This document shows positions 8,509 through 62,817 of a stretch of 64,000 nucleotides of DNA, piece by piece. Both the position numbers and the translations under genes were made by a program. Origin of the DNA: Squalus acanthias (taxonomy: Eukaryota). The notes beneath the pieces were generated by a model. That model searched no databases. It worked only from the letters and a program-made list of their open reading frames with translations, and was not told the DNA's origin. The stretch is taken from contig CM059431.1 in NCBI GenBank assembly GCA_030390025.1, forward strand, positions 147,500,001 through 147,564,000, written 5' to 3'. Every line of letters begins with the position of its first letter. Within the stretch, counting starts at the first letter, position 1.

Positions 8509-11500
8509 TCAAAGGCACTTCCCAGCACGCTCCTCATAACCCTTCACTCCCTTATCTTGCAAAAATCTGTCTATCTCCATTTTAAATGTATTTAATGACC
8601 CAGCCTCCACGGCTCTCTGCGGCGGAGAATTCCACAAATTTACGACCCTCTGAGAGAAGAAGTTCCTCCTCATCTCAGTTCTAAAAGGGCGACCCTTTAT
8701 TCTGAGACTGTGCCCCCGAGTTCTAGATTTCCCCATTAGGGGAAACATCCTCTCTGCATCTACCCTGTTGAGCCCCCTCAGTATCTTATATGTTTCGATA
8801 AGATCACCTCTCATTCTTCTAAATTCCAATGAGTATAGGCCCAGCCTGCTCAACCTTTCCTCATCAGTCAAACCCCTCATCTCTGGAATTAACCGAGTGA
8901 ATCGTCTCTGAACTGCCTCCAATGCAAGTATATCCTTCCTTAAATCAGGAGACCAAAACTGTACGCAGTACTCAAGGTGTGGTCTCACCAATACCCTGTA
9001 CAGTTGTAGCAGGACTTCCCTGCTTTTATACTCCAACCCCCTTGATTTAAATGCCAACATTCCATTTGCCTTTTTGATTACTTGCTGTACCTGCATGCTA
9101 ACTTTTTGTGTTTCATGCACAAGGACCCCCAGATCCCTCTGAAATGTAGCATTTTGTAATCTCTCTCCATTTAAATAATAGTTTGCTTTTTTATTTTCCT
9201 TGCCAAAGTGGATAACCTTGCACTTTCCCACATTATACTCCATCTGCCAAATGTTTGCCCACTCACCTAGGCTGTCTTTATCCCTTTGCAGATTCTTTGA
9301 GTCCTCTGCACAACTTGCTTTCCCACCCATCTTTGTATCATCTGCAAACTTGGCAACATTACACTCCATCCCTTCATCCAAATCATTAATATAGATTGTA
9401 AACAGTTGAGGCCCCAGCACCGATCCTTGTGGCACCCCACTAGTTACCGTTTGCCAACCAGAAAATGACCCATTTATCCCAACTCTCTGCTTTCTGTTAG
9501 TTAGCCAATTCTCTATCCATGCTAATATATTACCTCCAACTCCATCAGCTCTTATCTTGTGCAGTAACCTTTTATGTGGCACCTTATCGAATGCCTTCTG
9601 GAAATCCAAATATACCACATCCACTGGCTCACCCTTGTCCACCCTGCTTGTTACATGCTCAAAGAACTCCAGCAAATTTGTTAAACATGATTTCCCTTTC
9701 CTAAAACCATGCTGACTCTGTTTGACTGCAGTATGTTTTTCTAAATGCCCTGCTACTGCTTCCTTAATGAAGGACTCCAGCATTTTCCCAACGACAGATG
9801 TTAGGCTAACTGGTCTATAGTTTCTTGCTTTCTGTCTCCCTCCTTTCTTAAATAGGGGTGTTACATTGGCGGTTTTCCAATCCGCTGGGACATCTCCAGA
9901 GTCCAGGGAATTTTGGTATATTGCAACTAAAGCATCCACTATCTCTGCAGCCACTTATTTTATGTCCCTGGGATGTAGGCCATCTGGTCCAGGGGACTTG
10001 TCGTCTTTTAGTCCCATTATTTTACCGAGTACTAATTCCTTAGTGATAGTGATTGTCTTTAGTTCCCCACTCCCTGTGGCCCCTTGATTATCCATTATTG
10101 GGATGTTGTTAGTGTCTTCTACCGTGAAGACAGATGCAAAATATTTGTTCAGAGTCTCTGCCATTTCCCCGTTCCCCATTATTAATTCCCCAGTCTCATC
10201 CTCTAAGGGAACCAACATTTACTTTAGCTACTCTCTTCCTTTTTATATACCTGTAGAAGCTTTTACTATCTGTTTTAATGTTTCATGCCAGCTTACTCAC
10301 ATAATTCATCTTCTCTCTCTTTATTTTTTTTTAGTCATCCTTTGCTGGTTTTTAAAAATTTCTCAAACCTTTGGGGGTAAAAATTCAGTTGGATGCGCCT
10401 CCCGTTAGCGCCTTAAGAGGGCGCTAATGGGGCGCAAAGCCGCTAGCGCCCGGGCGCAGCGATGTTTGCGCCGCTCGGGAACTTAACTAGAGATTGTGCG
10501 GCGGCGCTAAACTTTACCGCTGCGAACACCTGCGCGCGCAGATTGTGACGTCATTCCATGGTGCAACGCCGTTGTGGCGCCCCGGAGCGGAAATTGAGTG
10601 GCGCCCCCTGCCTTACCACCTGGCGCATCCAACGACCAGAAGACTGGAACACTATCAATCGCTGTGGGGCTGGGGGGGGGCGCTGTTTAAAGGGGGCCTC
10701 TTCCTGTCTTTTATTGTTGGTGGCATTTTTGAACGACGCATTCTGAGAGAGAGAGGGAGAGACTTCTGGAGAGATTCAACGTTGTGTGAAGGAGTTTTTG
10801 GGTACTGAGCAGCACTTTGCAGGTTCATTTTGATTTGCCATTCCTTGTATCGATTTAGCAGAGACTGTGGGAGCTGCACTCTGAGCTCTTTGCCTGGTAT
10901 TCTCCATTGTTCTTTCCAGCACATTTGATGTGCAAGTCTCTCCAGGCCGAGATTCAAGGCTGCAATGAACAGGATGTGGATGGAAAGCAAGATTAACCAT
11001 CCCCTTTAAGAACTGGCCCGTGCCATTGTGTGTGTGTTCCATTGCTGACTGACATTACATGAGCTTCGCCAGCGCTCTGAGTTAGCGCCTCACTGCTCGG
11101 CCTTTGCGCCTTAAGACAGGTGTGCAGCGCCTGATTTAGCGCTCCACTCACCTCTCGGGGCGGTAAAAGTGAAGTTTCCAGTCAGTGCCGATAATTAGCG
11201 CCAGGCGCTATTATTTGCGTCCAGACGATATTTGCGCCCCAAATGGGGCGCGACCTAATTTTTCCCCCTTGGTCTCCCACCAATCTTGGCAACATTGTAT
11301 GCCTTCGTTTTCAATTTGATACCATCCTTTACTTCCTTAGTTAGCCACGGATGGTGCTCCCTTCTCTTAAAACCTTTCTTTCTCACTGGAATATATTTTT
11401 GTTGAGAGTTATGAAATATCTCCTTAAATGTCCGCCACTGCATTTCAACTTTCTTACCCTTTAATTTGTTTTTCCAGTCCACTTTAGCCAGTTCTGCCCT

Positions 11501-14489: not shown

Positions 14490-15945
14490 TCTAATCTAAT
14501 TGAATTTTTTGATGAAGTAACAGGGAGGTTTGATGAAGGGAATGCAATGGATGTTGTCTACATGGATTTTCCGAAGGCGTTTGACAAAGTACGACATGGC
14601 AACACGGTGGCATAGTGGTTAGCACTGTTGCCTCACAGCGCCAGGGACCCGGGTTTGAATCCGGCCTCCGGGTGACTGTCTGTGTGGAGTTTGCACATTC
14701 TCCCCGTGTCTGCTTGGGTTTCCTCCGGGTGCTCCGGTTTCCTCCCACAGTCCAAAGATGTGCGGGTTAGGTTGATTTGGCTATGATAAATTGACCCTTA
14801 GTGTTAGGGGGATTAAATACGTGGGGTTACGGGGATAGGGTGGGATATGTGTCGGTGCAGGCTCGATGGGCCAAAATGGCCTCTATCTGCACTGTGGGGA
14901 TTCTGTGAGAAGGTTGGTTAACACAATTGAGGCTCATGGAATAGGTGGATCAGTGGCAGCTTGGATAAGGAATTGGCTTAAGGACAGAAAACAGCGAGTT
15001 GTGGTAAATGGCTGTTTTTCAGGCAGGATGGTAGACAGTGGTGTTCCCCAAGGGTCAGTGTTGGGGCCACTGCTTTTTTTGATATATATAAATGAGCTGG
15101 ATATTGGAATATCAAGTAGAATTTCTAAATTTGCCGATGACACCAAACTTGGGGGTGTGGCAAACAGTGAGGATGATACCAATCGACTGCAACAGGACAT
15201 AGAAAGGCTGTCAGAGTGGGCAGACAAGTGGCAGATGGAGTTTAATATAGAGAAGTGTGAGGTGATGCATTTTGGCAGAAGGAACAGGGAGAGGCAATAT
15301 ACACTTAATGGCACAGTTTTAAAGAGTGTGCAGGGACAGAGGGACCTGGGAGTTAATGTGCATAGGTCCCTGAAGGTGGCAGGATATATTGAGAGAATAG
15401 TTAACAAAGCTGATGGGATCTTGGGTTTCATCAATAGAGGTATTGAGTACAAAAGTAGAGAAGTTATGCTGAACCTGTATAAAGCGCTGGTTAGGCCACA
15501 ACTGGAGTATTGTGTCCAGTTCTGGTCACCACACTTTAGGAAGGATGTGAAGGCCCTTGAGAGGGTGCAGAGGAGATTTACCACAATGGTTCTGGGGATG
15601 GGGGATCTTAGCTACAAGGACAGGTTGGAGAAGCTGGATTTGTTTTCATTGGAGTAAAGGAGGTTGAGGGGTGATTTGATAGAGGTGTACAAGATTTTGA
15701 TGGGTTTGGATAGGCTAGATGTAGAAAGGCTGTTCCCACTAGTTGATGGTACAAGGACTAGGGGACACAGATTTAAGGTTTTGGGCAAGAGATACAGGGG
15801 GGATGTGAGGAAAAACTTTTTTATGCAGCGAGTGGTGAGGACCTGGAGTTCGCTGCCGACGGAAGTGGTGGAAGCAGAGATGTTTTCAAGGGGAGACTGG
15901 ATAGGCACTTGAGGGAAATAAACTTGCAGGGATAGAGCGGGGGAA
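14490..15945 (+). mobile_element. 5'-truncated CR1 LINE (RT C-terminal half)
   Basis: ORFs 14866-15657 and 15664-15912 with GVPQGSVLGP, FADD, RPQLEYCVQFWSP, RGDLIEVYKI. Confidence 0.9.
14598..14908 (+). mobile_element. HE1/V-SINE-like SINE inserted in CR1
   Basis: tRNA-like head GGTGGCATAGTGG...GGTTTGAATCC, V-domain TGTGGAGTTTGCACATTCTCCCCGTGTCTGC..GGGTTTCCTCCGGGTGCTCCGGTTTCCTCCCACA, CR1-like tail GGGCCAAATGGCCT. Confidence 0.85.
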
Positions 15946-16135: not shown

Positions 16136-16996
16136 TTAGGTGGGGCTGAGGGGTGCGAGGGTTTGGGGTTGGTCAGGTGGGATTCTGGAGGATTTATTGC
16201 GGCAGTACCAGGTGAGACTCCCACCTCCCCCCAGAATGACTAAGATCCCCAAAGCGGTCGGAAACCAGACCCACCAGGGGGTTATGGAATAAACGATCAG
16301 ACTACCCGACCCGTCCGACCCGAGCCCCACCATCACTCCCTCGTAGCCTGTCGATTCGAGGGTGTATCTGTTCCCTCCTGACAAGGGGATGATGCCTTTG
16401 ATTATGAACTTCTCGTAAGGTGGGATCAAGACCTCCTCTTGCGACGGTCTGAACGAGAACTTTCGGAGGTCGACACCGTACGATGTGCTTATCACAAATA
16501 AAGGCTTTATCCCAAACTTCTCAGCCAGCACCTCATTGAAGGAAGTGGAGGTAAATATTCCAAACCTCATCTCTGTGCCCGGCTTCCCAGGGACCAAACT
16601 CCCAGAGATATTATTCCATGTCCCCCGATACATCAGTCGCCCAATGGAACTGTTTCTCAACTCGTCCAGGGCGACAGATAGAAGGTAGTGAAAGCTCTTC
16701 AGTTTAAAGCAGGCATTGTATTTGTTGAGGTCACCGCCATAGCTTCGAACCCCATCGTTCAAGCTACTGTACAAATCTCCACCAAAGGTGTAGGCGGTCA
16801 TGGCAATGAAATGCTCCTCTCGGAGACCACGAAGCTCTTTGTCTGTGTTGCCTTCCCAACTGTTGGAGGCCTCTTTCCAGATACTCTTAAACACCGGGTC
16901 CCTCCCCAGCTCTTTCTCCAGGGATTTTATCACCAAGTCATCGGACGCCTCGCTCCGCGAGAAGTAATAGGCGGCAGAATTTTCTTCCATGTTCAT
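16136..16996 (-). CDS. Ecto-ADP-ribosyltransferase (ARTC)-like catalytic exon, copy 1, with C-terminal transmembrane helix
   Basis: Open 286-aa frame with ARTC motifs AMTAYT, FKLKSFHYLLSVAL, YRGT (R), RFGIFTSTS (S), SQEEVLIPPYEKF (QxE); hydrophobic WWVWFPTALGILVILGGGGSLTWYC then RNKSSR tail. Confidence 0.88.
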   Translation of the reverse strand: MNMEENSAAYYFSRSEASDDLVIKSLEKELGRDPVFKSIWKEASNSWEGNTDKELRGLREEHFIAMTAYTFGGDLYSSLNDGVRSYGGDLNKYNACFKLKSFHYLLSVALDELRNSSIGRLMYRGTWNNISGSLVPGKPGTEMRFGIFTSTSFNEVLAEKFGIKPLFVISTSYGVDLRKFSFRPSQEEVLIPPYEKFIIKGIIPLSGGNRYTLESTGYEGVMVGLGSDGSGSLIVYSITPWWVWFPTALGILVILGGGGSLTWYCRNKSSRIPPDQPQTLAPLSPT

Positions 16997-17054
16997 CTCT
17001 GCTTGGAGTTAGAATCTGACAATCTGTACCCTCGGGAGTCACTGGTATACTTAC

Positions 17055-17065
17055 CAGACTTCTAC
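17055..17065 (-). other. Candidate 11-nt micro-exon upstream of ART copy 1 (identical copy at 19095-19105)
   Basis: Minus strand TTTCTGTCTTTCTGATTGGCAG|GTAGAAGTCTG|GTAAGT: good acceptor and consensus donor, but the following intron would be only 53-58 nt. Confidence 0.35.
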
Positions 17066-17107
17066 CTGCCAATCAGAAAGACAGAAATCCAACTTATACA
17101 GCGACTT

Positions 17108-17452
17108 TCACTCCCTCAGTACTGCCCCTCCGACAGTGCAGCGCTCCCTCAGTACTGACCCTCCGACAGTGCAGCGCTCCCTCAGTACTGCCCCTCCGAC
17201 AGTGCAGCAGTCACTCAGTACTGCCCCTCCGACAGTGCAGCGCTCCCTCAGTACTGACCCTCCGACAGTGCAGCGCTCCCTCAGTACTGTCCCCCGACAG
17301 TGCAGAGCTCCCTCAGTACTGCCCCTCCGACAGTGCAGCAATCCCTCAGTACTGTCCCCCGACCGTGCAGTGCTCCCTCAGTACTGCCCCTCCGACAGTG
17401 CAGAGGTCCCTCAGTACTGCCCCTCCGACAGTGCAGCGCCCCCTCAGTACTG
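17108..17452 (-). repeat. 33-bp SINE-derived minisatellite
   Basis: Reverse complement of the 2400-3780 unit. Confidence 0.92.
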
Positions 17453-17475
17453 GGCAACAGGGGATTGTCAGCCTG

Positions 17476-18175
17476 GGTTAGAGGGGATGAGGGGTTAGAG
17501 GGGATGAGCGGTTAGAGGGGATGAGGGGTTAGAGAGGATGAGAGGTTAGAGGGGATGAGGGGTTAGAGGGGGTGAGGGGGTAGAGGGGGTGAGGGGTGAG
17601 GGGCTGGAGGGTTAGAAGGGGTGAAGGCTGAGGGGTTAGAGGGGGTGAGGGGTGAGGCGTTAGAGGGTGAAGGGCTGAGGGGTGAGGGGTTAGGTGGGGG
17701 TGAGAGATTAGAGGGTGTGAGGGTTAGAGGGTGTGAGGGGTTAGAGGGGGTGAGGAATGAGGAGTTAGAGGGTTAGAGGGGTGAGGGGTGAGGGGTTAGA
17801 GGGTGAGGGGTTAGAGTGTGAGGGGTTAGGTAGGGGTGAGTGGTGAGGGGTTAGAGGGTGAGCGGTGAGGGATTAGGTGGGGTTGAGGGTTTAGAGGGGG
17901 TGAGGGGTTAGAGGGGGTGAGGGGTGAGGAGTTAGATGGTTCGGGGGTGAGGGGTTAGGTGGGGGTGAGGAATTAGAGGGGCTGAGGGGTTAGAGGGGTG
18001 AGGGGTGAGGGGGGTGAGGGGGTGAGGGGTTAGGTGGGGGTGAGAGATTAGAGGGTGTGAGGGGTTAGAGGGGGTGAGGGATGAGGAGTTAGAGGGTTAG
18101 AGGGGTGAGGGGTGAGGGGTTAGGTGGGGGTGAGGGGTTAGAGGGGGTGAGGAGTTAGAGGTGAGGGGTGAGGAG
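17476..18175 (+). repeat. G-rich degenerate telomere-like simple repeat
   Basis: GGGGTTAGA/GGGGTGA mixture abutting the stop codon of ART copy 2. Confidence 0.85.
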
Positions 18176-19036
18176 TTAGGTGGGGCTGAGGGGTGCGAGG
18201 GTTTGGGGTTGGTCAGGTGGGATTCTGGAGGATTTATTGCGGCAGTACCAGGTGAGACTCCCACCTCCCCCCAGAATGACCAAGATCCCCAAAGCGGTCG
18301 GAAACCAGACCCACCAAGGGGTTATGGAATAAACGATCAGACTACCCGACCCGTCCGACCCGAGCCCCACCATCACTCCCTCGTAGCCTGTCGATTCGAG
18401 GGTGTATCTGTTCCCTCCTGACAAGGGGATGATGCCTTTGATTATGAACTTCTCGGAAGGTGGGATCAAGACCTCCTCTTGCGATGGTCTGAACGAGAAC
18501 TTTCGGAGGTCGACACCGTACGATGTGCTTATCACAAATAAAGGCTTTATCCCAAACTTCTCAGCCAGCACCTCATTGAAGGAAGTGGAGGCAAATATTC
18601 CAAACCTCAATTCTGTGCCCGGCTTCCCAGGGACCAAACTCCCAGAGATATTATTCCATGTCCCCCGATACATCAGTCGCCCAATGGAACTGTTTCTCAA
18701 CTCGTCCAGGGCGACAGATAGAAGGTAGTGAAAGCTCTTCAGTTTAAAGCAGGCATTGTATTTGTTGAGGTCACCGCCATAGCTTCGAACCCCACCGTTC
18801 AAGCCACTGTACAAATCTCCACCAAAGGTGTAGGCGGTCATGGCGATGAAATGCTCCTCTCGGAGACCACGAAGCTCTTTGTCTGTGTTGCCTTCCCAAC
18901 TGTTGGAGGCCTCTTTCCAGATACTCTTAAACACCGGGTCCCTCCCCAGCTCTTTCTCCAGGGATTTTATCACCAAGTCATCGGACGCCTCGCTCCGCGA
19001 GAAGTAATAGGCGGCAGAATTTTCTTCCATGTTCAT
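18176..19036 (-). CDS. Ecto-ADP-ribosyltransferase (ARTC)-like catalytic exon, copy 2
   Basis: 286-aa ORF, 5 aa differences from copy 1; YRGT, FASTS, SQEEVLIPPSE; same TM and tail. Confidence 0.88.
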   Translation of the reverse strand: MNMEENSAAYYFSRSEASDDLVIKSLEKELGRDPVFKSIWKEASNSWEGNTDKELRGLREEHFIAMTAYTFGGDLYSGLNGGVRSYGGDLNKYNACFKLKSFHYLLSVALDELRNSSIGRLMYRGTWNNISGSLVPGKPGTELRFGIFASTSFNEVLAEKFGIKPLFVISTSYGVDLRKFSFRPSQEEVLIPPSEKFIIKGIIPLSGGNRYTLESTGYEGVMVGLGSDGSGSLIVYSITPWWVWFPTALGILVILGGGGSLTWYCRNKSSRIPPDQPQTLAPLSPT

Positions 19037-19147
19037 CTCTGCTTGGAGTTAGAATCTGACAATCTGTACCCTCGGGAGTCACTGGTATACTTACCAGACT
19101 TCTACCTGCCAATCAGAAAGACAGAAATCCAACTTATACAGCGACTT

Positions 19148-19908
19148 TCACTCCCTCAGTACTGCCCTACCGACAGTGCAGCGCTCCCTCAGTACTGACC
19201 CTCCGACAGTGCAGCGCTCCCTCAGTACTGCCCCTCCGACAGTGCAGCAGTCACTCAGTACTGCCCCTCCGACAGTGCAGCGCTCCCTCAGTACTGACCC
19301 TCCGACAGTGCAGCGCTCCCTCAGTACTGACCCTCCGACAGTGCAGCGCTCCCTCAGTACTGCCCCTCCGACAGTGTAGCACTCACTCAGTACTGCCCCT
19401 CCGACAGTGCAGCGCTCCCTCAGTACTGACCCTCCGACAGTGCAGCGCTCCCTCAGTACTGACCCTCCGACAGTGCAGCGCTCCCTCAGTACTGCCCCTC
19501 CGACAGTGCAGCGCTCCCTCAGTACTGACCCTCCGACAGTGCAGCGCTCCCTCAGTACTGCCCCTCCGACAGTGCAGCGCTCCCTCAGTACTGCCCCTCC
19601 GACAGTGCAGCACTCCCTCAGTACTGCCCCTCCGACAGTGCAGCGCTCCCTCAGTACTGCCCCTCCGACAGTGCAGCGCTCCCTCAGTACTGCCCCTCCG
19701 ACAGTGCAGCACTCTCTCAGTACTGCCCCTCCGACAGTGCTGCGCTCCCTCAGTACTGCCCCTCTGACAGTGCGGTGCTCCCTCAGCACTGCCCCTCCGA
19801 CAGTGCGGCACTCCCTCAGTACTGCCCCTCCGACAGTGCGGCGCTCCCTCAGTACTGCCCCTCCGACAGTGCGGCGCTCCCTCAGTACTGTCCCTCCGAC
19901 AGTGCAGT
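19148..19908 (-). repeat. 33-bp SINE-derived minisatellite
   Basis: Tandem unit as above. Confidence 0.92.
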
Positions 19909-20019
19909 GTAGCAGGAGAGGACAAAAGGTTTGTGGAATTGAAGTCAGCGTTGTGGTTTTGTGCTCTGTCTCAGCATTCACTGCACTTTAAACATCTTCT
20001 CACTGTCAACATGCAAACG

Positions 20020-20390
20020 TACTGAACCTTATTTAGACCGCACTTGGAATACTGTGCACCGTTCTGGTCTCCAGACCGCACTTGGAGCACTGAGCACAGT
20101 TCTGGTCTCCATATCACACTAGGAGAACTGTGCACAGTTCTGGTCTCCATATCACATTTGGAGCACTGTGCACAGTTCTGGTCTACATATCACACTAGGA
20201 GAACTGTGCACAGTTCTGGTCTCCATATCACACTTGGAATACTGTGCACAGTTCTGGTCTCCATATCACACTTGGAGCACTGTGCACAGTTCTGGTCTCC
20301 CTATCACACTTGGAGCACTGTGCACAGTTCTGGTCTCCATATCACACTTGGAGCACTGTGTACAGTTCTGGTCTCCATACCACACTTAGA
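20020..20390 (+). repeat. 38-bp CR1-derived minisatellite with native CR1 lead-in (copy at 25383-25750)
   Basis: CTTATTTAGACCGCACTTGGAATACTGTGCACCGTTCTGGTCTCC precedes the array. Confidence 0.88.
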
Positions 20391-20719
20391 TCTTGGCTCA
20401 GCATGCCTCCAGCCCAGTTTGGGAGGGGAGCTTGCTGTGAGCAGATTGGGTCACACATTTCCATTCATTGAAAGACTTTTCCATTTCTACAGCGCCTTTC
20501 ACCTCCCCCGGCACGTCCCAAAGCGCTTCACAGCCAATGAAGTGCTTTGTTTTTGAAGTGTTGTAATGCAGGAAATGCGGAAGCCATTTGCACACAGCAA
20601 GATCCCAGTGTGATAATGACCAGATCATCTGTTTTAGTGATGTTGTTGGAGGGATTAATATTGGCCCCAGGACACCGGGGATAACTCTCCCCAGCTCTTC
20701 TTCGCAATCGTAAAACAAG

Positions 20720-21180
20720 AAAGACTTGCATTTCTAGAGCGCCTTTCACGACCACCGGACGTCCCAACGCACTTTACAGCCAATGAAGGGCTTGTTTTTT
20801 GTAGTGTAGTCACTGTTGTAGTGTCGGAAACACGGCAACCAATTTGCGCACAGCAAGCTCCCACAAACTGCAACATGATAATGATCAGGGCATCTCATTT
20901 TTAGTGATGTTGGTTGAGGGATAAATATTGCCCGCAGGATACCGGGGAGAAGTCCCTGCTGCCCTTATTCGAAATAGTGCCCATGGGATCTTTAACACCT
21001 GAGAGAGCAGACGGTTTAACATCACATCTGAAAGACAGCCCCTCCGGCAGTGCAGCACTCCCTCAGCACTGCACTGGAGTGTCAGCCTAGATTTCTGAGC
21101 TAAAGTCTCTGGAGTGGGACTTGAACCCACAACCTTCTGACTCAGAGGTGAGAGTGCTGCCCACGGAGCCTCCGCTGACA
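20720..21180 (-). mobile_element. Unexpanded Deu-SINE-like copy (duplicate at about 26083-26543)
   Basis: Head, one single 33-bp hairpin unit, central body and tail match 2296-4107. Confidence 0.82.
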
Positions 21181-21184
21181 CATA

Positions 21185-21925
21185 TTAGGGTTGGTGACCT
21201 ATAGCTTGGTCAAAGAGGGAGGCTTTAAGGAGAATCTTAAAGGAGGAGAGAGAGGCGGAGAGGTTTAGGGTGGGAATTCCAGAGCTTAGTGGCCCAGGCA
21301 GCTGAAGGCACGGCCGCCAATAGTGGAGCGATGGAAATCGGGGGATGCACAAGAGGCCAGAATTGGGGGAGCGCAGAGACCTTAGAGGGATGTAGGGCTG
21401 GAGGAGGTTACAGAGATAGGGAGGGTTGTAGGGGCTGGAGGAGTTTACAGAGATAGGGAGGGTTGTAGGGGCTGGAGGAGGTTACAGAGATAGGGAGGGT
21501 TGTAGGGCTGGAGGAGGTTACAGAGATAGGGAGGGTTGTAGGGCTGGTGGAGGTTACAGAGATAGGAAGGGTTGTAGGGGCTGGAGGAGTTTACAGAGAT
21601 AGGGAGGGTTGTAGGGGCTGGAGGAGGTTACAGAGATAGGGAGGGTTGTAGTGCTGGAGGAGGTTACAGAGATAGGGAGGGTTGTAGGGGCTGGAGGAGG
21701 TTACAGAGATAGGGAGGGTTGTAGGGCTGGAGGAGGTTACAGAGATAGGGAGGGATGTAGGGCTGGAGGAGGTTATAGAGATAGGGAGGCTTGTAGGGCT
21801 GGAGGAGGTTACAGAGATAGGGAGGGTTGTAGGGCTGGAGGAGGTTACAGAGATAGGGAGGGTTATAGGGGCTGGAGAAAGTTACAGCGATAGGGATTGT
21901 TGTAGGGCTGGAGGAGGTTACAGCG
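21185..21925 (-). mobile_element. L2 LINE 3' fragment running into the 36-bp minisatellite (duplicate at about 26548-27250)
   Basis: Minus strand reads PPYLCNLLQPY..LRSPNSGLLCIP..GGRAFSCLG..WNS, typical of the L2 ORF2 end. Confidence 0.75.
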
Positions 21926-21929
21926 CCCC

Positions 21930-23432
21930 ATCAGTGCTGCCCCTCCGACAGTGCAGCACTCCCTCAGTACTGCCCCTCCGACAGTGCGGCGCTCACTCAG
22001 TACTGTCCCTCCGACAGTGCAGCGCTCCCTCAGTACTGCCCCTCCGACAGTGCGGCGCTCACTCAGTACTGTCCCTCCGACAGTGCAGCGCTCCCTCAGT
22101 ACTGCCCCTCCGACAGTGCAGCACTCCCTCAGTACTGCCCCTCCGACAGTGCAGGACTCCCTCTGTACTGCCCCTCCGACAGTGCGGCGCTCACTCAGTA
22201 CTGTCCCTCCGACCGTGCGGCGCTCCTTCAGTACTGCCCCTCCGACAGTGCAGCGCTCACTCAGTTCTGCCCCTCCGACAGTGCTGCGCTCCCTCAGTAC
22301 TGCGCTCCCTCAATACTGCCCCTCTGACAGTGCAGCGCTCCCTCAGTACTGCCCCCACCGACAGTGCAGCGCTCCCTCAGTACTGCCCCTCTGACAGTGC
22401 AGCGCTCCCTCAGTACTGCCCCTCCGACAGTGCAGCGCTCCCTCAGTACTGCCCCTCCGACCGTGCAGCGCCCCCTCAGTACTGCCCCTCCGACAGTGCA
22501 GCGCTCCCTCAGTACTGCCCCTCCGACAGTGCAGCGCTCCCTCAGTACTGCATGTCCGACAGTGCAGCACTCCCTCAGTACTGCCCCTCCGACAGTGCAA
22601 CGCTCCCTCAGTACTGCCTTAACGATGGTGCAGCACTCCCTCAGTACTGTCCCTTTGACAGTGCAGCGCTCCCTCATTACTGCCCCACCGACAGTGCAGC
22701 GCTCCCTCAGTACTGGCCCTCTGACAGTGTGGCGCTCCCTCAGTACTGCTCCTCTGACAGTGCAGCGCTCCCTCAGTACTGCTCCTCCGACAGTGCAGCG
22801 GTCCCTCAGTACTGCCTCTCCAACAGTGCAGCGCTCCCTCAGTACTGCCCCTCCGACAGTGTAGCGCTCCCTCAGTACTGCCCCTCCGACAGTGCAGCGC
22901 TCCCTCAGTACTGCCCCTCCGACAGTGCAGCACTCCCTCAGTGCTGCCCCTCCAACAGTGCAGCGCTCCCTCAGTACTGCCCCTCCGACAGTGCAGCGCT
23001 CCCTCAGTACTGCCCCTCCGACAGTGCAGCGCTCCCTCAGTACTGCACCTCCGACAGTGCAGCGCTCCCTCAGTACTGCCCCTCTGACAGTGCAGTGCTC
23101 CCTCAGTACTGCCCATCTGACAGTGCAGCACTCCCTCAGTACTGTCCCCCGACAGTGCAGAGCTCCCTCAGTGCTGCCCCTCCGACAGTGCAGCACTCCC
23201 TCAGTACTGTCCCCCGACCGTGCAGTGCTCCCTCAGTACTGCCCCTCCGACAGTGCAGAGGTCCCTCAGTACTGCCCCTCCGACAGTGCAGCGCCCCCTC
23301 AGTACTGGGCAACAGGGGATTGTCAGCCTGGGTTTATGGGGCTCGAGTCCCTGGAGTGGAGAATCTGGAACCCACGACCGTCTGACTCAGAGGCGAGAGA
23401 GACTGAGACCCACTGAGCCACGACTGACAGGT
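21930..23432 (-). repeat. 33-bp minisatellite with SINE head at about 23310-23432 (duplicate at 27258-28758)
   Basis: Array followed by reverse-strand head with GTGGCTCAGTGGG and GGTTCCAG. Confidence 0.9.
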
Positions 23433-23517
23433 AGGAAAGAATGTCATTGATGAGGAAGATATGTAGCAGGAGAGGACAAAGGGTTTGGGGAATTGGAGTC
23501 AGCGTTGTGGTACTCGC

Positions 23518-23554
23518 AGGACGTCAGGAACAGAATGTGAAACAGCCTCTCCAT
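23518..23554 (-). CDS. Putative leader (signal-peptide) exon copy A, MERLFHILFLTS, GC donor
   Basis: AAGATGG Kozak context, hydrophobic 12 codons + 1 nt, donor GCGAGT (GTGAGT in copies C and D). Confidence 0.45.
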
Positions 23555-23659
23555 CTTTACTTCAACACAAGGATTCCGGCAATAAAACAACTTTTCCTCA
23601 CAATCAGCTACACTCTGCAAGAAAATAGTCGCTCAACTGAATTACTATAATCCACGGGA

Positions 23660-23834
23660 GGAAGTGAAACCACCTGCCACTATTTTAATCTTTTCAATCT
23701 CGAGTCTCACACATCAGATTGGTCTGTGGGCAATGAATAATGCTCTAAAACATCATCCTGTCCACTTTAAACATCTGTTCACTATCAACATGCAAACATA
23801 CTGAACCTTGTTTAAACAGTGGGAGGAAGTGAAA
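23660..23834. promoter_or_regulatory. Two Ets-IRF composite (EICE-like) motifs GGAAGTGAAA upstream of leader exon A (copies at 28987-28996 and 29152-29161)
   Basis: GGAAGTGAAAC at 23660 and 23825. Confidence 0.5.
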
Positions 23835-26800
23835 CTTTGTTGGTTTCTGGTTTGTGGCGAGTTGGCAGTGGGCAGATGGGTCACACATTTCCCTTCATTG
23901 AAAGACTTTTGCATTTCTACAGCGGCTTTCACCTCCTCCGGCACGTCCCAAAGCGCTTCACAGCCAATGAAGTGCTTTGTTTTTGAAATGTTGTAGTGTG
24001 GGAAACGCGGAAGCCATTTGCGCACAGCAAGATCCCAGCGTGATAATGACCAGATCATCTGTTGTAGTGATGTTGTTGGAGGGATTAATATTGGCCCCAG
24101 GACACCGGGGATAACTCTCCCCAGTTCTTCTTCGCAATAGTAAAAAAAGAAAGACTTGCATTTCTATAGCGCCTTTCACGACCACTGGACGTCCCAACGC
24201 ACTTTACAGACAATGAAGTGATTTTTTTTTGGAGTGTAGTCACTGTTGTAATGTAGGAAACTCGGCAGCCAATTTGCGCACAGCAAGCTCCCACAAACAG
24301 CAACATGATAATGATCAGGTCATCTCATTTTTAGTGATGTTGGTTGAGGGATAAATATTGCCCGCAGGATACCGGGGAGAAGTCCCTGCTGCCCTTATTC
24401 GAAATAGTGCCCATGGGATCTTTGACACCTGAGAGAGCAGACGGTTTAACGTCTCATCCGAAAGACAGCACCTCCGGCAAGCCCCTTCACAATCTTATAT
24501 GTTTCAATAAGATCGCCTCTCCTTCTTCTGAACTCCAATGAGTAGAGTCCCAATCTACTCAACCTCTCCTCATATGTCCACCCCCTCATCCCCGGGATTA
24601 ACCGAGTGAACCTTCTTTGTACTGCCTCGAGAGCAAGTATGTCTTTTCTTAAGTTTGGACACCAAAACTGTATGCAGTATTCCAGGTGCGGTCTCACCGA
24701 TACCTTATATAACTGCAGCAATACCTCCCTGTTTTTATAATCTATCCTCCTAGCAATAAAAGCCAACAATCCGTTGGCCTTCTCAGTACTGACCCTCCGA
24801 CAGTGCAGCGCTCCCTCAGTACTGACCCTCCGACAGTGCAGCGCTCCCTCAGTACTGCCCCTCCGACAGTGCAGCGCTCCCTCAGTACTGACCCTCCGAC
24901 AGTGCAGCGCTCCCTCAGTACTGCCCCTCCGACAGTGCAGCGCTCCCTCAGTACTGCCCCTCCGACAGTGCAGCACTCCCTCAGTACTGCCCCTCCGACA
25001 GTGCAGCGCTCCCTCAGTACTGCCCCTCCGACAGTGCAGCGCTCCCTCAGTACTGCCCCTCCGACAGTGCAGCACTCTCTCAGTACTGCCCCTCCGACAG
25101 TGCTGCGCTCCCTCAGTACTGCCCCTCCGACAGTGCGGTGCTCCCTCAGCACTGCCCCTCCGACAGTGCGGCACTCCCTCAGTACTGCCCCTCCGACAGT
25201 GCGGCGCTCCCTCAGTACTGCCCCTCCGACAGTGCGGCGCTCCCTCAGTACTGTCCCTCCGACAGTGCAGTGTAGCAGGAGAGGACAAAAGGTTTGTGGA
25301 AATGAAGTCAGCGTTGTGGTTTTGTGCTCTGTCTCAGCATTCACTGCACTTTAAACATCTTCTCACTGTCAACATGCAAACGTACTGAACCTTATTTAGA
25401 CCGCACTTGGAATACTGTGCACCGTTCTGGTCTCCAGACCGCACTTGGAGCACTGAGCACAGTTCTGGTCTCCATATCACACTAGGAGAACTGTGCACAG
25501 TTCTGGTCTCCATATCACATTTGGAGCACTGTGCACAGTTCTGGTCTCCATATCACACTAGGAGAACTGTGCACAGTTCTGGTCTCCATATCACACTTGG
25601 AATACTGTGCACAGTTCTGGTCTCCATATCACACTTGGAGCACTGTGCACAGTTCTGGTCTCCCTATCACACTTGGAGCACTGTGCACAGTTCTGGTCTC
25701 CATATCACACTTGGAGCACTGTGTACAGTTCTGGTCTCCATACCACACTTAGATCTTGGCTCAGCATGCCTCCAGCCCAGTTTGGGAGGGGAGCTTGCTG
25801 TGAGCAGATTGGGTCACACATTTCCATTCATTGAAAGACTTTTCCATTTCTACAGCGCCTTTCACCTCCCCCGGCACGTCCCAAAGCGCTTCACAGCCAA
25901 TGAAGTGCTTTGTTTTTGAAGTGTTGTAATGCAGGAAATGCGGAAGCCATTTGCACACAGCAAGATCCCAGTGTGATAATGACCAGATCATCTGTTTTAG
26001 TGATGTTGTTGGAGGGATTAATATTGGCCCCAGGACACCGGGGATAACTCTCCCCAGCTCTTCTTCGCAATCGTAAAACAAGAAAGACTTGCATTTCTAG
26101 AGCGCCTTTCACGACCACCGGACGTCCCAACGCACTTTACAGCCAATGAAGGGCTTGTTTTTTGTAGTGTAGTCACTGTTGTAGTGTCGGAAACACGGCA
26201 ACCAATTTGCGCACAGCAAGCTCCCACAAACTGCAACATGATAATGATCAGGGCATCTCATTTTTAGTGATGTTGGTTGAGGGATAAATATTGCCCGCAG
26301 GATACCGGGGAGAAGTCCCTGCTGCCCTTATTCGAAATAGTGCCCATGGGATCTTTAACACCTGAGAGAGCAGACGGTTTAACATCACATCTGAAAGACA
26401 GCCCCTCCGGCAGTGCAGCACTCCCTCAGCACTGCACTGGAGTGTCAGCCTAGATTTCTGAGCTAAAGTCTCTGGAGTGGGACTTGAACCCACAACCTTC
26501 TGACTCAGAGGTGAGAGTGCTGCCCACGGAGCCTCCGCTGACACATATTAGGGTTGGTGACCTATAGCTTGGTCAAAGAGGGAGGCTTTAAGGAGAATCT
26601 TAAAGGAGGAGAGAGAGGCGGAGAGGTTTAGGGTGGGAATTCCAGAGCTTAGTGGCCCAGGCAGCTGAAGGCACGGCCGCCAATAGTGGAGCGATGGAAA
26701 TCGGGGGATGCACAAGAGGCCAGAATTGGGGGAGCGCAGAGACCTTAGAGGGATGTAGGGCTGGAGGAGGTTACAGAGATAGGGAGGGTTGTAGGGGCTG

Positions 26801-28844
26801 GAGGAGTTTACAGAGATAGGGAGGGTTGTAGGGGCTGGAGGAGGTTACAGAGATAGGGAGGGTTGTAGGGCTGGAGGAGGTTACAGAGATAGGGAGGGTT
26901 GTAGGGCTGGTGGAGGTTACAGAGATAGGAAGGGTTGTAGGGGCTGGAGGAGTTTACAGAGATAGGGAGGGTTGTAGGGGCTGGAGGAGGTTACAGAGAT
27001 AGGGAGGGTTGTAGTGCTGGAGGAGGTTACAGAGATAGGGAGGGTTGTAGGGGCTGGAGGAGGTTACAGAGATAGGGAGGGTTGTAGGGCTGGAGGAGGT
27101 TACAGAGATAGGGAGGGATGTAGGGCTGGAGGAGGTTTTAGAGATAGGGAGGGTTGTAGGGCTGGAGGAGGTTACAGAGATAGGGAGGGTTGTAGGGCTG
27201 GAGGAGGTTACAGAGATAGGGAGGGTTATAGGGGCTGGAGGAGGTTACAGCGCCCCATCAGTGCTGCCCCTCCGACAGTGCAGCACTCCCTCAGTACTGC
27301 CCCTCCGACAGTGCGGCGCTCACTCAGTACTGTCCCTCCGACAGTGCAGCGCTCCCTCAGTACTGCCCCTCCGACAGTGCGGCGCTCACTCAGTACTGTC
27401 CCTCCGACAGTGCAGCGCTCCCTCAGTACTGCCCCTCCGACAGTGCAGCACTCCCTCAGTACTGCCCCTCCGACAGTGCAGCACTCCCTCTGTACTGCCC
27501 CTCCGACAGTGCGGCGCTCACTCAGTACTGTCCCTCCGACCGTGCGGCGCTCCTTCAGTACTGCCCCTCCGACAGTGCAGCGCTCACTCAGTTCTGCCCC
27601 TCCGACAGTGCTGCGCTCCCTCAGTACTGCGCTCCCTCAATACTGCCCCTCTGACAGTGCAGCGCTCCCTCAGTACTGCCCCCACCGACAGTGCAGCGCT
27701 CCCTCAGTACTGCCCCTCTGACAGTGCAGCGCTCCCTCAGTACTGCCCCTCCGACAGTGCAGCGCTCCCTCAGTACTGCCCCTCCGACCGTGCAGCGCCC
27801 CCTCAGTACTGCCCCTCCGACAGTGCAGCGCTCCCTCAGTACTGCCCCTCCGAAAGTGCAGCGCTCCCTCAGTACTGCATGTCCGACAGTGCAGCACTCC
27901 CTCAGTACTGCCCCTCCGACAGTGCAACGCTCCCTCAGTACTGCCTTAACGATGGTGCAGCACTCCCTCAGTACTGTCCCTTTGACAGTGCAGCGCTCCC
28001 TCATTACTGCCCCACCGACAGTGCAGCGCTCCCTCAGTACTGGCCCTCTGACAGTGTAGCGCTCCCTCAGTACTGCTCCTCTGACAGTGCAGCGCTCCCT
28101 CAGTACTGCTCCTCCGACAGTGCAGCGGTCCCTCAGTACTGCCTCTCCAACAGTGCAGCGCTCCCTCAGTACTGCCCCTCCGACAGTGTAGCGCTCCCTC
28201 AGTACTGCCCCTCCGACAGTGCAGCGCTCCCTCAGTACTGCCCCTCCGACAGTGCAGCACTCCCTCAGTGCTGCCCCTCCAACAGTGCAGCGCTCCCTCA
28301 GTACTGCCCCTCCGACAGTGCAGCGCTCCCTCAGTACTGCCCCTCCGACAGTGCAGCGCTCCCTCAGTACTGCACCTCCGACAGTGCAGCGCTCCCTCAG
28401 TACTGCCCCTCTGACAGTGCAGTGCTCCCTCAGTACTGCCCATCTGACAGTGCAGCACTCCCTCAGTACTGTCCCCCGACAGTGCAGAGCTCCCTCAGTA
28501 CTGCCCCTCCGACAGTGCAGCACTCCCTCAGTACTGTCCCCCGACCGTGCAGTGCTCCCTCAGTACTGCCCCTCCGACAGTGCAGAGGTCCCTCAGTACT
28601 GCCCCTCCGACAGTGCAGCGCCCCCTCAGTACTGGGCAACAGGGGATTGTCAGCCTGGGTTTATGGGGCTCGAGTCCCTGGAGTGGAGAATCTGGAACCC
28701 ACGACCGTCTGACTCAGAGGCGAGAGAGACTGAGACCCACTGAGCCACGACTGACAGGTAGGAAAGAAAGTCATTGATGAGGAAGATATGTAGCAGGAGA
28801 GGACAAAGGGTTTGGGGAATTGGAGTCAGCGTTGTGGTACTCGC

Positions 28845-28881
28845 AGGACGTCAGGAACAGAATGTGAAACAGCCTCTCCAT
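28845..28881 (-). CDS. Putative leader exon copy B, MERLFHILFLTS, GC donor
   Basis: Identical to copy A within the 5.3-kb duplication. Confidence 0.45.
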
Positions 28882-29805
28882 CTTTACTTCAACACAAGGA
28901 TTCCGGCAATAAAACAACTTTTCCTCACAATCAGCTACACTCTGCAAGAAAATAGTCGCTCAACTGAATTACTATAATCCACGGGAGGAAGTGAAACCAC
29001 CTGCCACTATTTTAATCTTTTCAATCTCGAGTCTCACACATCAGATTGGTCTGTGGGCAATGAATAATGCTCTAAAACATCATCCTGTCCACTTTAAACA
29101 TCTGTTCACTATCAACATGCAAACATACTGAACCTTGTTTAAACAGTGGGAGGAAGTGAAACTTTGTTGGTTTCTGGTTTGTGGCGAGTTGGCAGTGGGC
29201 AGATGGGTCACACATTTCCCTTCATTGAAAGACTTTTGCATTTCTACAGCGGCTTTCACCTCCTCCGGCACGTCCCAAAGCGCTTCACAGCCAATGAAGT
29301 GCTTTGTTTTTGAAATGTTGTAGTGTGGGAAACGCGGAAGCCATTTGCGCACAGCAAGATCCCAGCGTGATAATGACCAGATCATCTGTTGTAGTGATGT
29401 TGTTGGAGGGATTAATATTGGCCCCAGGACACCGGGGATAACTCTCCCCAGTTCTTCTTCGCAATAGTAAAAAAAGAAAGACTTGCATTTCTATAGCGCC
29501 TTTCACGACCACTGGACGTCCCAACGCACTTTACAGACAATGAAGTGATTTTTTTTTGGAGTGTAGTCACTGTTGTAATGTAGGAAACTCGGCAGCCAAT
29601 TTGCGCACAGCAAGCTCCCACAAACAGCAACATGATAATGATCAGGTCATCTCATTTTTAGTGATGTTGGTTGAGGGATAAATATTGCCCGCAGGATACC
29701 GGGGAGAAGTCCCTGCTGCCCTTATTCGAAATAGTGCCCATGGGATCTTTGACACCTGAGAGAGCAGACGGTTTAACGTCTCATCCGAAAGACAGCACCT
29801 CCGGC

Positions 29806-32235
29806 AAGCCCCTTCACAATCTTATATGTTTCAATAAGATCGCCTCTCCTTCTTCTGAACTCCAATGAGTAGAGTCCCAATCTACTCAACCTCTCCTCAT
29901 ATGTCCACCCCCTCATCCCCGGGATTAACCGAGTGAACCTTCTTTGTACTGCCTCGAGAGCAAGTATGTCTTTTCTTAAGTTTGGACACCAAAACTGTAT
30001 GCAGTATTCCAGGTGCGGTCTCACCGATACCTTATATAACTGCAGCAATACCTCCCTGTTTTTATAATCTATCCTCCTAGCAATAAAAGCCAACAATCCG
30101 TTGGCCTTCTTGATCACCTGCTGCACCTGGATACTAACTTTTTGATTTTCTTGCACTAGGACCCCCAGATCCCTTTGTACTGCAGTACTTTCCAGTTTCT
30201 CGCCATTAAGATAATAACTTGCTCTCTGATTTTTCCTGCCAAAGTGCATCACCTCACATTTTCCAATATTGTATTGCATCTGCCAAATGTCCGCCCACTC
30301 ACCCAGCCTGTCTATATCCCCTTGTAGGTTTTTTATGTCCTCCTCACTTTCTACTTTCCCTCCCATCTTTGTTTCATCTGCAAACTTTGATATGTTACAC
30401 TCGGTCCCCTCCTCCAAATCGTCAATATAGATTGTAAAGAGTTGGGGACCCAGCACTGACCCCTGCGGAACACCACTGGCTACTGGTTGCCAGTCCGAGA
30501 ATGAACCATTTATCCCAACTCTCTGCTTCCTGTTAGATAACCAATTCTCCACCCATGCCAGAATATTACCCCCAATCCAGTGATTTTTTATCTTGAGCAA
30601 TAATCTTTTATGTGGCACCTTGTCGAATGCCTTCTAGAAGTCTAAATACACTACGTCCACTGGTTCCCCTTTATCCACCCTGTACGTTATGTCCTCAAAG
30701 AACTCAATCAAATTTGTCAGACATGACTTCCCCTTCATAAAGCCATGCTGACTTTGTCCTATTAAATTATGTATATCTAAATGTTCCGTTACTGTCTCCT
30801 TAATAATAGACTCCAAAATTTTACCCACCACAGATGTTAGGCTAACTGGTCTATAATTTCCAGCCTTCTGCCTACTACCCTTTTTAAATAAGGGTGTTAC
30901 ATTCACAGTTTTCCAATCTGCCGGGACCTTTGCTGAGTCCAGGGAATTTTGGAAAATGATTACCAAAGCATCCACAATCCCAACTGCCACTTCCCTCAAG
31001 ACCCTAGGATGTAAGTCATCAGGTCCAGGGGATTTATCCGCCTTGAGTCCCATTATTTTACTGAGTACCAATTCCTCAGTGATTTTAATCGTATTTAGTT
31101 CCTCCCCCCCTAGAGCCCCCTGTTTGTCCAGTGTTGGGATGTTCTTAGTGTCCTCTACCGTAAAGACTGAAACAAAATATTTGTTCAGCATTTTTGCCAT
31201 CTCCATGTTTCCCACCATTAATTTCCCGGTCTCATCCTCTAAGGGACCTATGTTTGCCTTAGCCACCCTTTTTCTTTTTATATAACTATAGAAACTCTTG
31301 CTATCTGTTTTTATATTTTTTGCTAATTTATTTTCATAATCTATCTTCCCTTTCTTAATCAATCCTTTAGTTACTTTTAGCTGTCTTTTGAAGACTTCCC
31401 AATCTTCTATCCTCCCACTAAGTTTGGCTACCTTATATGTCCTTGTTTTTAGTCGGATACTATCCTTAATTTCTTTACTTAGCCACGGATGGCTGTCATT
31501 TCTTTTACACCCTTTTTTCTTCAGTGGAATATATATCTTTTGAAAGTTGTAAAATAACTCCTTGAATGAACACCACTGCTCATGTACCGTCTTACCCTTT
31601 AATCTATTTTCCCAGTCCACTTTAATCAATTCCGCTCTCATACCATCATAGTCTCCTTTATTCAAGCTCAGTACGCTTGTTTGAGAACCAACCTTCTCAC
31701 CCTCTAATTGGATAGGGAACTCAACCATGTTATGGTCACTCATTCCAAGGGGATCCTTAACTAGGACATTATTAATTAATCCTGACTCATTACACAGGAC
31801 CAGGTCCAAGGTTGCTTGCCCCCTTGTAGGATCAGTTACATACTGCTCAAGAAATCCATCCCGAATACACTCAATAAACTCTTCCTCAAGGCTGCCCTGC
31901 CCAATTTGATTTGTCCAGTTATTATGTTAGTTAAAATCCCCCATAATTATAGCTGTTCCCTTATTACATGCCCCAACTATTTCCTTATTAATACTTCTTC
32001 CAGCAGAGTTGCAAATATTAGGAGGCCTATATACTACTCCCACTAGTGTTTTTTTCCCCTTATTATTCCTTATCTCCACCCAAACTGTTTCATTATCCTG
32101 ATCCTTTGACCCAATATCATTTCTCTGTATTACAGTGATTCCTTCCTTTATTAACATAGCCACCCCACATCCCCTTCTTTCCTGCCTGTCCTTCCTGATT
32201 GTTAAATAACCTGGCCTATTTAATTCCCAATCGTT
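29806..32235 (-). mobile_element. CR1 ORF2 fragment (APE C-terminal part + RT), truncated at both ends; partial copy at 24479-24781
   Basis: ORFs 31927-32163, 30634-31809, 29773-30618 with YRPP, GDFN, SDH, NYRPVSL, QHGF, GVPQGSVLGP, FADE. Confidence 0.92.
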
Positions 32236-33873: not shown

Positions 33874-33910
33874 AGAACGTCAGGAACAGAATGTGAAACA
33901 GCCACTCCAT
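33874..33910 (-). CDS. Putative leader exon copy C, MEWLFHILFLTF, GT donor
   Basis: ATGGAGTGGCTGTTTCACATTCTGTTCCTGACGTTCT|GTGAGT; IRF-like AAAGTGAAA at 34017-34025. Confidence 0.55.
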
Positions 33911-41372: not shown

Positions 41373-41409
41373 AGGACGTCAGGAACAGAATGTGAAACAG
41401 CCACTCCAT
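41373..41409 (-). CDS. Putative leader exon copy D, MEWLFHILFLTS, GT donor
   Basis: ATGGAGTGGCTGTTTCACATTCTGTTCCTGACGTCCT|GTGAGT. Confidence 0.55.
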
Positions 41410-61868: not shown

Positions 61869-62817
61869 AAACTAATCCCACTGCCCCACACCCTCCCCAT
61901 AGCCCTGTACCAATCCCAAACTAATCCCACTGCCCCGCTCTCTCCCCATAGCCCTGTATCAAACCCAAACTAATCCCACTGCCCCGCTCTCTCCCCATAG
62001 CCCTGTACCAATCCCAAACTAATCCCACTGCCCCACACTCTCCCCATAGCCCTGTACCAATCCCAAACTAATCCAACTGCCCCACACCCTCCCCATAGCC
62101 CTGTACCAATCCCAAACTAATCCCACTGCCCCGCTCTCTCCCCATAGCCCTGTATCAAACCCAAACTAATCCCACTGCCCCGCTCTCTCCCCATCGCCCT
62201 ATATCAATCCCAAACTAATTCCACTGCCACGTGCTCTCCTGTAGCTCTGTATCAATCCCACGCTAATCCCACTGCTCCGCGCTCTCCCATAGTCCTGTGT
62301 CAATCCCCAAACTAACCTTATGCCCCGCTCTCTCCCCTTAGCCCTGTATCAATCTCAAACTAATCCCACTGCCCCGCTCTCTCCCCTTAGCCCTGTATCA
62401 ATCCCAAGCGAATCCCACGGCCATGCTCTCCCCCCATAGCCCTGTACCAATCCCCAAACTAATCCCACTGCCCCGCTCTCTCCCCTTAGCCCTGTATCAA
62501 TCCCAAGCTAATCCCACGGCCCCTCTCTCTCCCCATAGCCCTGTATTAATTCCAAAATAATCCCACTGCTCCGGGCTCTCCCCATAGCCCTACATCAATC
62601 TCAAAATAATCCCACTGCCCTGCTCTTTCCCCATAGCCTTGTTACTAATCCCACTGCCCCGCTCTCTCCCCATCGCCTTGGATCAATCCTAAACTAATCC
62701 CACTGCCCCGCTCTCTCCCCAGAGCCCTGTATCAATCTCAAACTAATCCCACTGCCCCGCTCTCTCCCCAGAGCCCTGTATCAATCTCAAACTAATCCCA
62801 CTGCCCTACTCTCTCCA

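Follow-up and report, generated by a model that had tools for sequence, protein, structure and literature searches.

A predicted type I cell-surface ARTC gene of Squalus acanthias, frameshifted as assembled, and its cartilaginous-fish relatives

The canonical cysteines of ARTC ecto-ADP-ribosyltransferases are joined by a disulfide, and the same holds for the canonical pair of the ecto-NAD glycohydrolase rat ART2.2 (RT6.2, PDB 1gxy). Rat ART2.2 was the top match, both in sequence (E = 2.4e-17, ~30% identity) and in fold, to two exon copies in a 64-kb stretch of Squalus acanthias DNA (the window), with which it shares the R-S-Q-x-E motif and an extracellular ART domain, but it differs from them in having a GPI anchor and the canonical N-to-C cysteine pair, and neither the added hairpin nor the membrane helix. 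Mammalian and avian ARTC1-5 have in common with the window the domain PF01129, a signal peptide on a small first exon and a mature protein encoded mostly by exon 2. For chicken ART4, the accessible part of the source describes a three-exon layout with the signal peptide on a small exon 1 (PMC2576468); as described there, intron 1 of ART4 is in phase 0 and its anchor is encoded by the third exon, while intron 1 of the window is in phase 1 and the anchor lies on the catalytic exon. In the available text of two further papers, ARTCs are described as GPI-anchored or secreted (PMC9027952, PMC8038981), and the enzyme for intracellular arginine ADP-ribosylation is said to be still unclear (PMC9027952). 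No publications on shark, cartilaginous-fish or transmembrane ARTCs were found, but most subscription papers fell outside our search and absence from print is not established by it.

Shark proteins with the automatic names 'ecto-ADP-ribosyltransferase 5-like' and 'erythroblast NAD(P)+-arginine ART-like' (P0001 from Heptranchias, P0004 from Heterodontus, P0002 from Cetorhinus, and P0007, P0027 and P0028 from Mustelus) are 40-50% identical to the window. These proteins share with the window the absence of the canonical cysteines, the hairpin, a WW-x-W helix, a similar signal peptide and an N-terminal cysteine. Their models are intact, their helices more hydrophobic and their tails Cys-rich and mostly 5-9 residues long, whereas the window copies are frameshifted, carry a 5-residue insert after YRG and have a longer tail. 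We consider it highly probable that the locus encodes a type I cell-surface ARTC in two exons and consists of partial tandem duplicates that are frameshifted as assembled. Very likely, the ARTC family of cartilaginous fishes is an undescribed part of this enzyme group, i.e., a disulfide-rewired clade with secreted, GPI-like and transmembrane members.

Catalytic exon copies and upstream signal-peptide exons

Both catalytic exon copies lie on the minus strand. Copy B (16136..17065, acceptor at 17065) holds an open reading frame (16136-17008) that encodes the ART domain followed by WWVWFPTALGILVILGGGGSLTWYC, a 21-residue tail starting RNKSSR and a stop; copy A (18176..19105, acceptor at 19105) holds a second copy of this frame (18176-19048) 2,040 bases upstream, with 10 of 873 bases different. 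Across the complete 930-base exons there are 10 differences, five synonymous and five nonsynonymous. The copies are separated by a 33-base minisatellite and a G-rich satellite (17111..18202) that border the 2,040-base duplication, and copy B has no signal exon of its own between itself and copy A. The passage from the catalytic exon into a hydrophobic segment and the RNKSSR tail, on which the original prediction was built, was found in both copies. No further ART exon or remnant was detected in the 64-kb window with tblastn, profile or nhmmer searches.

The Pfam ART match (PF01129, 16352..16924; E = 2.5e-39, 135 bits against a cut-off of 22.3) includes a catalytic triad that aligns to that of ART2.2 and reads YRG (arginine codon 16627-16625), TSTS (ASTS in copy A; S-T-S at 16552-16541) and QEE (Q-x-E at 16441-16433), with Cys97 encoded near 16711. 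The N-terminal motif L-x-M...NSAAY (16952..16996) contains both internal ATGs (16996 and 16990) as well as the serine that occupies the first canonical cysteine site. On the other side of the domain, STGYEG, with glycine at the second canonical site, and a beta-hairpin common to cartilaginous-fish ARTCs (16286..16354) are followed by the membrane helix PWWVW...WYC, recognized by hydropathy and modelling and ending in a single juxtamembrane cysteine (16202..16279), and by the tail and stop (16136..16201). The internal ATGs and the NSS and NIS sequons were present as originally predicted. A charged tail had also been proposed: the tail exists, but its charge is mild and its last 6-8 codons are part of a GAGGGGT satellite (15954-16155/16161). 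An AATAAA at 16198, considered as a poly(A) site, was rejected because it lies inside the tail codons.

The exon starts at the acceptor 17065, 69 bases ahead of the first ATG, and its 5' part (17003..17065), which would encode the end of the signal peptide and the mature N-terminus with the subfamily cysteine (codon 17021-17019), is open in the signal-exon frame and out of frame with the ART domain. Between the two parts (16997..17002; about 19037-19042 in copy A, where the frameshift is identical) the sequence is two bases short of related copies. The first 20 codons of the two exon copies resemble homologue N-termini (ranks 9 and 10 among 62,115 20-mers, with all eight higher-ranking ones coming from repeat sequence), and BLASTP of the 20-residue 5' segment against P0004 gave no alignment. 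The acceptor (17065, and 19105 in copy A) is in phase 1, which fits a phase 1 donor, and is the pyrimidine-richest of 11 AGs tested.

Such donors were found on a 37-base signal-peptide exon further upstream, the copies of which were ranked among 81,005 stop-free 12-mers scored against four homologue N-termini. The top-ranking copy, MEWLFHILFLTF (33874..33910, minus strand), has a phase 1 GT donor, an ATG flanked by A (-3) and G (+4), and a tblastn match to the N-terminus of P0004 (E = 0.012). The near-identical copy starting at 41409 (41373..41409, minus) ranks second, again with a phase 1 GT donor and with 12 hydrophobic codons. Two other copies on the same strand, at 28845..28881 (rank 4, within a 5.3-kb segmental duplication) and 23518..23554 (rank 5), have GC donors and are probably dead. 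Both this exon and the frameshift of the two catalytic copies against it had been overlooked in the original prediction. Contigs from four of 15 public runs (X1, X6, X7 and X8; 31 of 277 records listed) were compared with the window, and none among those listed joins exon 1 to exon 2 or reaches exon 1. None of the 15 runs is on record as RNA, and the RNA status of X7 and X8, which belong to one study, is a guess. For this reason the absence of X7 and X8 cover beyond 17068 was given no weight.

Several other elements were recorded around these exons. The 5-residue insert after YRG (16613-16599 region) holds an NIS sequon, is absent from all 50 aligned relatives and is spanned gap-free by X7 and X8 contigs. 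A consensus GT donor is located 11 bases into the catalytic exon, at 17054 and 19094, and its use for a micro-exon would be hypothetical. LINE reverse-transcriptase fragments occur at 8509-9954, 14839-15657 and 29773-31926, the first and last with RVT_1, and one of them is reached on the 3' side of the ART copies. A tandem segmental duplication (19419-30110, unit ~5.3 kb, 95-99% identical) carries both GC-donor signal-exon copies, and a Tigger/pogo-type DNA transposon with in-frame stops (34842-36824, minus; CENP-B_N, HTH_Tnp_Tc5 and DDE_1) sits between the GT-donor ones. A 154-codon frame at 62747-63211 (plus), which we take to resemble the endonuclease end of Penelope-type elements, had no Pfam match.

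Relatives, canonical cysteines and fold

A first search returned 24 matches, all from cartilaginous fishes (top identity 50%), which together with 81 matches of a profile search gave 90 proteins, 47 of them treated as cartilaginous (46 by name, one by tree position) and 43 as bony-vertebrate. A cluster-representative search added seven high-ranking proteins, five of them similar in kind, that were used only for alignment depth. In a quick tree (91 rows, midpoint root, SH-aLRT support) the window and the 47 cartilaginous proteins form one side of a branch with a support of 99, and the window belongs to a 10-row group (SH-aLRT 95) in which nine rows have the helix and tail. Its partners in this group are proteins of Heptranchias, Heterodontus, Cetorhinus, Carcharodon and Mustelus, a position that by itself would mark the window as most likely shark DNA. 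A signal-like N-terminus is present in six of the nine (P0001, P0002, P0004, P0007, P0027 and P0028), and the models of P0003, P0005 and P0006 start at or after the L-x-M motif; the P0006 model also joins LINE reverse-transcriptase sequence to a helix-bearing ART, which is probably an annotation error. Among all 47 cartilaginous relatives, 29 have a hydrophobic N-terminus. Models starting at or after the motif are similarly frequent in both groups (11/47 cartilaginous, 7/43 bony-vertebrate), which points to missed small exons. By hydropathy, judged by eye, helix and tail are present in 11 of the 47 and a GPI-like end in 19, and the other 17 are anchorless.

The canonical cysteines were counted by position in the alignment. 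At the sites of the DDQYxxC and S-x-x-N-C cysteines the window has Ser and Gly, so that the replacement reported earlier (NSAAYYFSRS, STGYEG) stands, and no cartilaginous protein (0/47) has a cysteine at either site, the first being covered in 45 of them. The bony-vertebrate proteins have it in 41 of 43 cases at each site, with the misses made up of three without cover and one Tyr. Alignment with chondrichthyan ARTs, asked for in the original prediction, thus gave no retained cysteine at the equivalent sites. Since the cysteines are absent in secreted, GPI-like and helix-bearing members alike, their loss characterizes the clade independently of how its members are anchored. The idea that a cytosolic location explains the loss does not survive this count (47 of 47 whatever the anchor), nor the protein P0073 of the rockfish Sebastes umbrosus, which has a membrane helix and a basic tail and keeps both canonical cysteines. 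If its model is right, P0073 represents an independent gain of a transmembrane anchor.

AlphaFold2 models of the window ART frame (pLDDT 90.1) and of P0001 (91.1) both show a short N-terminal strand and a beta-hairpin after the last canonical strand. In the window frame of 287 residues, the hairpin strands (222-228 and 234-238, pLDDT 91-96) run straight into a helix (242-270), and the segment formerly read as a 'GS-rich linker' forms the turn between the two strands in the model. The best fold match was rat ART2.2 (Z 25.6, rmsd 2.3, 213 aligned residues), and the next entry family had a Z of 17.0.

Other cysteines recur in the helix-bearing proteins. An N-terminal cysteine precedes L-x-M by nine residues in six of the seven close partners that have this region and by seven in the other one, and it lies 11 residues before the motif in all three members of the second helix-bearing group. 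In the window the codon for a cysteine nine residues before L-x-M is present, though not in frame as assembled. This residue and the cysteine of Y-N-A-C-F are the only ones in the P0001 ectodomain, the window pattern is the same, and the ectodomains of P0027 and P0028 have only the N-terminal cysteine and one in G-G-R-C. An odd number of ectodomain cysteines was counted in four of ten relatives (P0007, P0012, P0017 and P0021), as well as in the N-terminally truncated P0003. An alternative disulfide from the N-terminal cysteine is probably the simplest reading of these patterns, with the pairing deduced from sequence. The anchorless shark proteins P0022, P0032 and P0035-P0041 show a third cysteine pattern, a C-terminal C-P-x-x-C-x-C plus an extra cysteine in G-C-Q-G.

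As a whole, the cartilaginous proteins appear to be a separate clade that lacks the cysteine pair of nearly all bony-vertebrate members, has an extra beta-hairpin and is anchored in three ways, with helix and tail in two groups, and it holds both E-x-E and Q-x-E active sites. It offers a natural test of the purpose of the canonical disulfide.

Membrane anchor, topology and predicted activity

By hydropathy, the window frame ends in a helix followed by a 21-residue polar tail, unlike a GPI signal or an anchorless end. This helix is weaker than each of the ten others in the comparison (Kyte-Doolittle mean of the best 19 residues 1.64 vs 2.16-3.16), and being also Gly-rich it could be taken for an atypical GPI signal or for a segment that splicing removes so that a GPI exon is used instead, all the more as 19 of the 47 relatives, judged by eye, have a hydrophobic C-terminus followed by a very short tail or none. 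Both forms of this explanation are highly improbable given the polar tail after the helix, the retention of helix and Cys/Lys-rich tail in close relatives and the absence of any consensus-like donor in the exon beyond 17054; moreover, one X8 contig (RNA status guessed) is gap-free over 16202-16696.

The type I membrane ART that had been put forward as one of two options is supported by the signal exon, the helix-bearing partners and the enrichment in sequons. The 11 helix-bearing ectodomains contain 47 sequons, compared to 19.1 ± 3.9 after shuffling, a 2.5-fold excess that none of 1,000 shuffles reached. Judged from these features, the helix-bearing subfamily is a group of type I ecto-enzymes facing the lumen and the outside. 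In an intact member, the signal peptide of exon 1 would bring the chain into the ER, where the ART domain would be luminal, and later extracellular, and presumably N-glycosylated at the enriched sequons. The canonical disulfide would be replaced by the hydrophobic N-terminal strand and the modelled C-terminal hairpin, and probably by another disulfide from the cysteine nine residues before L-x-M. The predicted C-terminal helix would serve as stop-transfer signal and membrane anchor, leaving a short tail in the cytosol, and palmitoylation of the juxtamembrane cysteines is possible. With a membrane-spanning anchor, an ecto-ART would behave differently in raft targeting, in shedding and in its access to substrates on the surface.

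The second option, an enzyme that is translated from ATG 16996 or 16990 without a signal peptide and is tail-anchored with its domain in the cytosol, is very improbable. Its geometry is that of a tail anchor (a single C-terminal helix with a 21-residue tail), ATG 16990 has a good context with an in-frame stop just upstream, the frameshift uncouples the signal peptide, and copy B has no exon 1 of its own. However, its cysteine argument fails with the clade-wide loss, the gene has a signal exon upstream, sequons are enriched in the subfamily and 29 of the 47 relatives begin with a hydrophobic N-terminus. The internal ATGs belong to the conserved L-x-M motif, and in two paralogous loose ends, translated by hand, the position of ATG 16996 is a Leu codon, with a Cys nine codons upstream of it. 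Models lacking a signal are about as frequent in bony (7/43) as in cartilaginous (11/47) proteins. The ATG of exon 1 lies in a strong context and opens a frame of 54 codons that runs past both internal ATGs, so that these could be reached by leaky scanning or a new promoter only. A related scenario, in which a real frameshift switched the topology and a tail-anchored, cytosol-facing ARTC arises by leaky scanning or from a transcript lacking exon 1, has an equally slim chance. If true, the clade-wide disulfide loss would have let the domain fold in the cytosol, and the product would be an intracellular NAD-depleting enzyme; a cytosol-facing ARTC is the more striking claim, and an unlikely one.

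For the type I ecto-enzyme, the active site suggests which reaction an intact copy would catalyse. Both window copies have R-S-Q-x-E, the arginine-specific R-S-E-x-E motif being absent, and among the 47 relatives E-x-E occurs in 33 and Q-x-E in 12. According to the accessible part of one source, arginine specificity requires E-x-E, rat ART2 with its Q-x-E hydrolyses NAD and does not modify target proteins, and other Q-x-E enzymes act on Cys, Asn or DNA (PMC3102197). By analogy with rat ART2.2, the intact enzyme would most likely be an ecto-NAD glycohydrolase, an assignment we hold with moderate confidence. A transferase for a non-arginine acceptor is possible but clearly less likely, and from the motif both an arginine transferase and an inactive protein appear doubtful, to the same degree.

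Frameshift and state of the copies

Spliced as assembled, exons 1 and 2 give a frame of 54 codons with a stop near 16940. The distance from the N-terminal Cys codon (17021) to the L-x-M motif is 25 bases in the window and not the expected 27. Contigs of all four runs contain two extra bases behind 16999 (three in X1, two in X6, one each in X7 and X8), and the three records that, among those listed, bridge 16999 by at least 31 letters all have the longer form. With 8-24 letters out of 111-176 unlike those of the window, the bridging records are paralogues, which fix the frame of the family but not the state of the window locus.

We lean towards the view that the window copies are dead members of a birth-and-death family. 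The signs of decay are a Val at a position that is Ala in 48 of 50 relatives, a Pro in the helix at a position that is Leu in eight of nine close relatives, and the two GC-donor copies of exon 1; the Pro is not private to the present assembly, because an X6 contig is identical to the window over 16156-16372, i.e., the helix and tail. Between the window and a long X7 contig with its helix-region partner, 18 codons differ in the encoded residue and seven only silently, a near-neutral ratio that fits a fast-changing family. Because they look broken, the copies matter mainly as a sign of the fast turnover of this family.

It is possible, if rather unlikely, that the type I architecture is kept in a working gene and that the two-base shortfall is a consensus error. 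The catalytic residues are retained, no stop interrupts the 290 codons of either copy, the proportion of synonymous changes separating A from B exceeds the expectation for neutral decay (P = 0.054), and the longer form appears in every listed record that bridges 16999. Set against this, the break is common to both copies despite 10 other differences, which fits a deletion predating the duplication, and there are changes at conserved positions and dead exon-1 copies nearby.

A real break could also be bypassed by splicing, either through a cryptic acceptor at 17001 or through an 11-base micro-exon (17065-17055) joined to 16996, and the product would still be a signal-bearing type I protein, lacking the N-terminal Cys. 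The AG at 17001 is the only one of 11 that yields a long frame (288 codons) from the phase 1 donor, and 17054 is the sole consensus-like donor of the exon. By the usual splice rules, though, splicing to 17001 would use an AAG with a poor pyrimidine tract and pass over a stronger site 64 bases ahead of it, the micro-exon would depend on an intron of 58 bases and on the last of three closely spaced AGs, and an X7 contig (RNA status guessed) is unbroken over 16954-17060, all of which makes a bypass improbable.

Run X1 contributed 218 contigs over 16145-17105, 53 of them at ≥ 99% identity, followed by 72, 59 and 34 under 90%. This spread suggests many paralogues in that organism, although the figure is not a copy number. 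One X1 DNA contig skips 130 bases (16193-16322), which in a related copy would delete the end of the hairpin and the whole helix.
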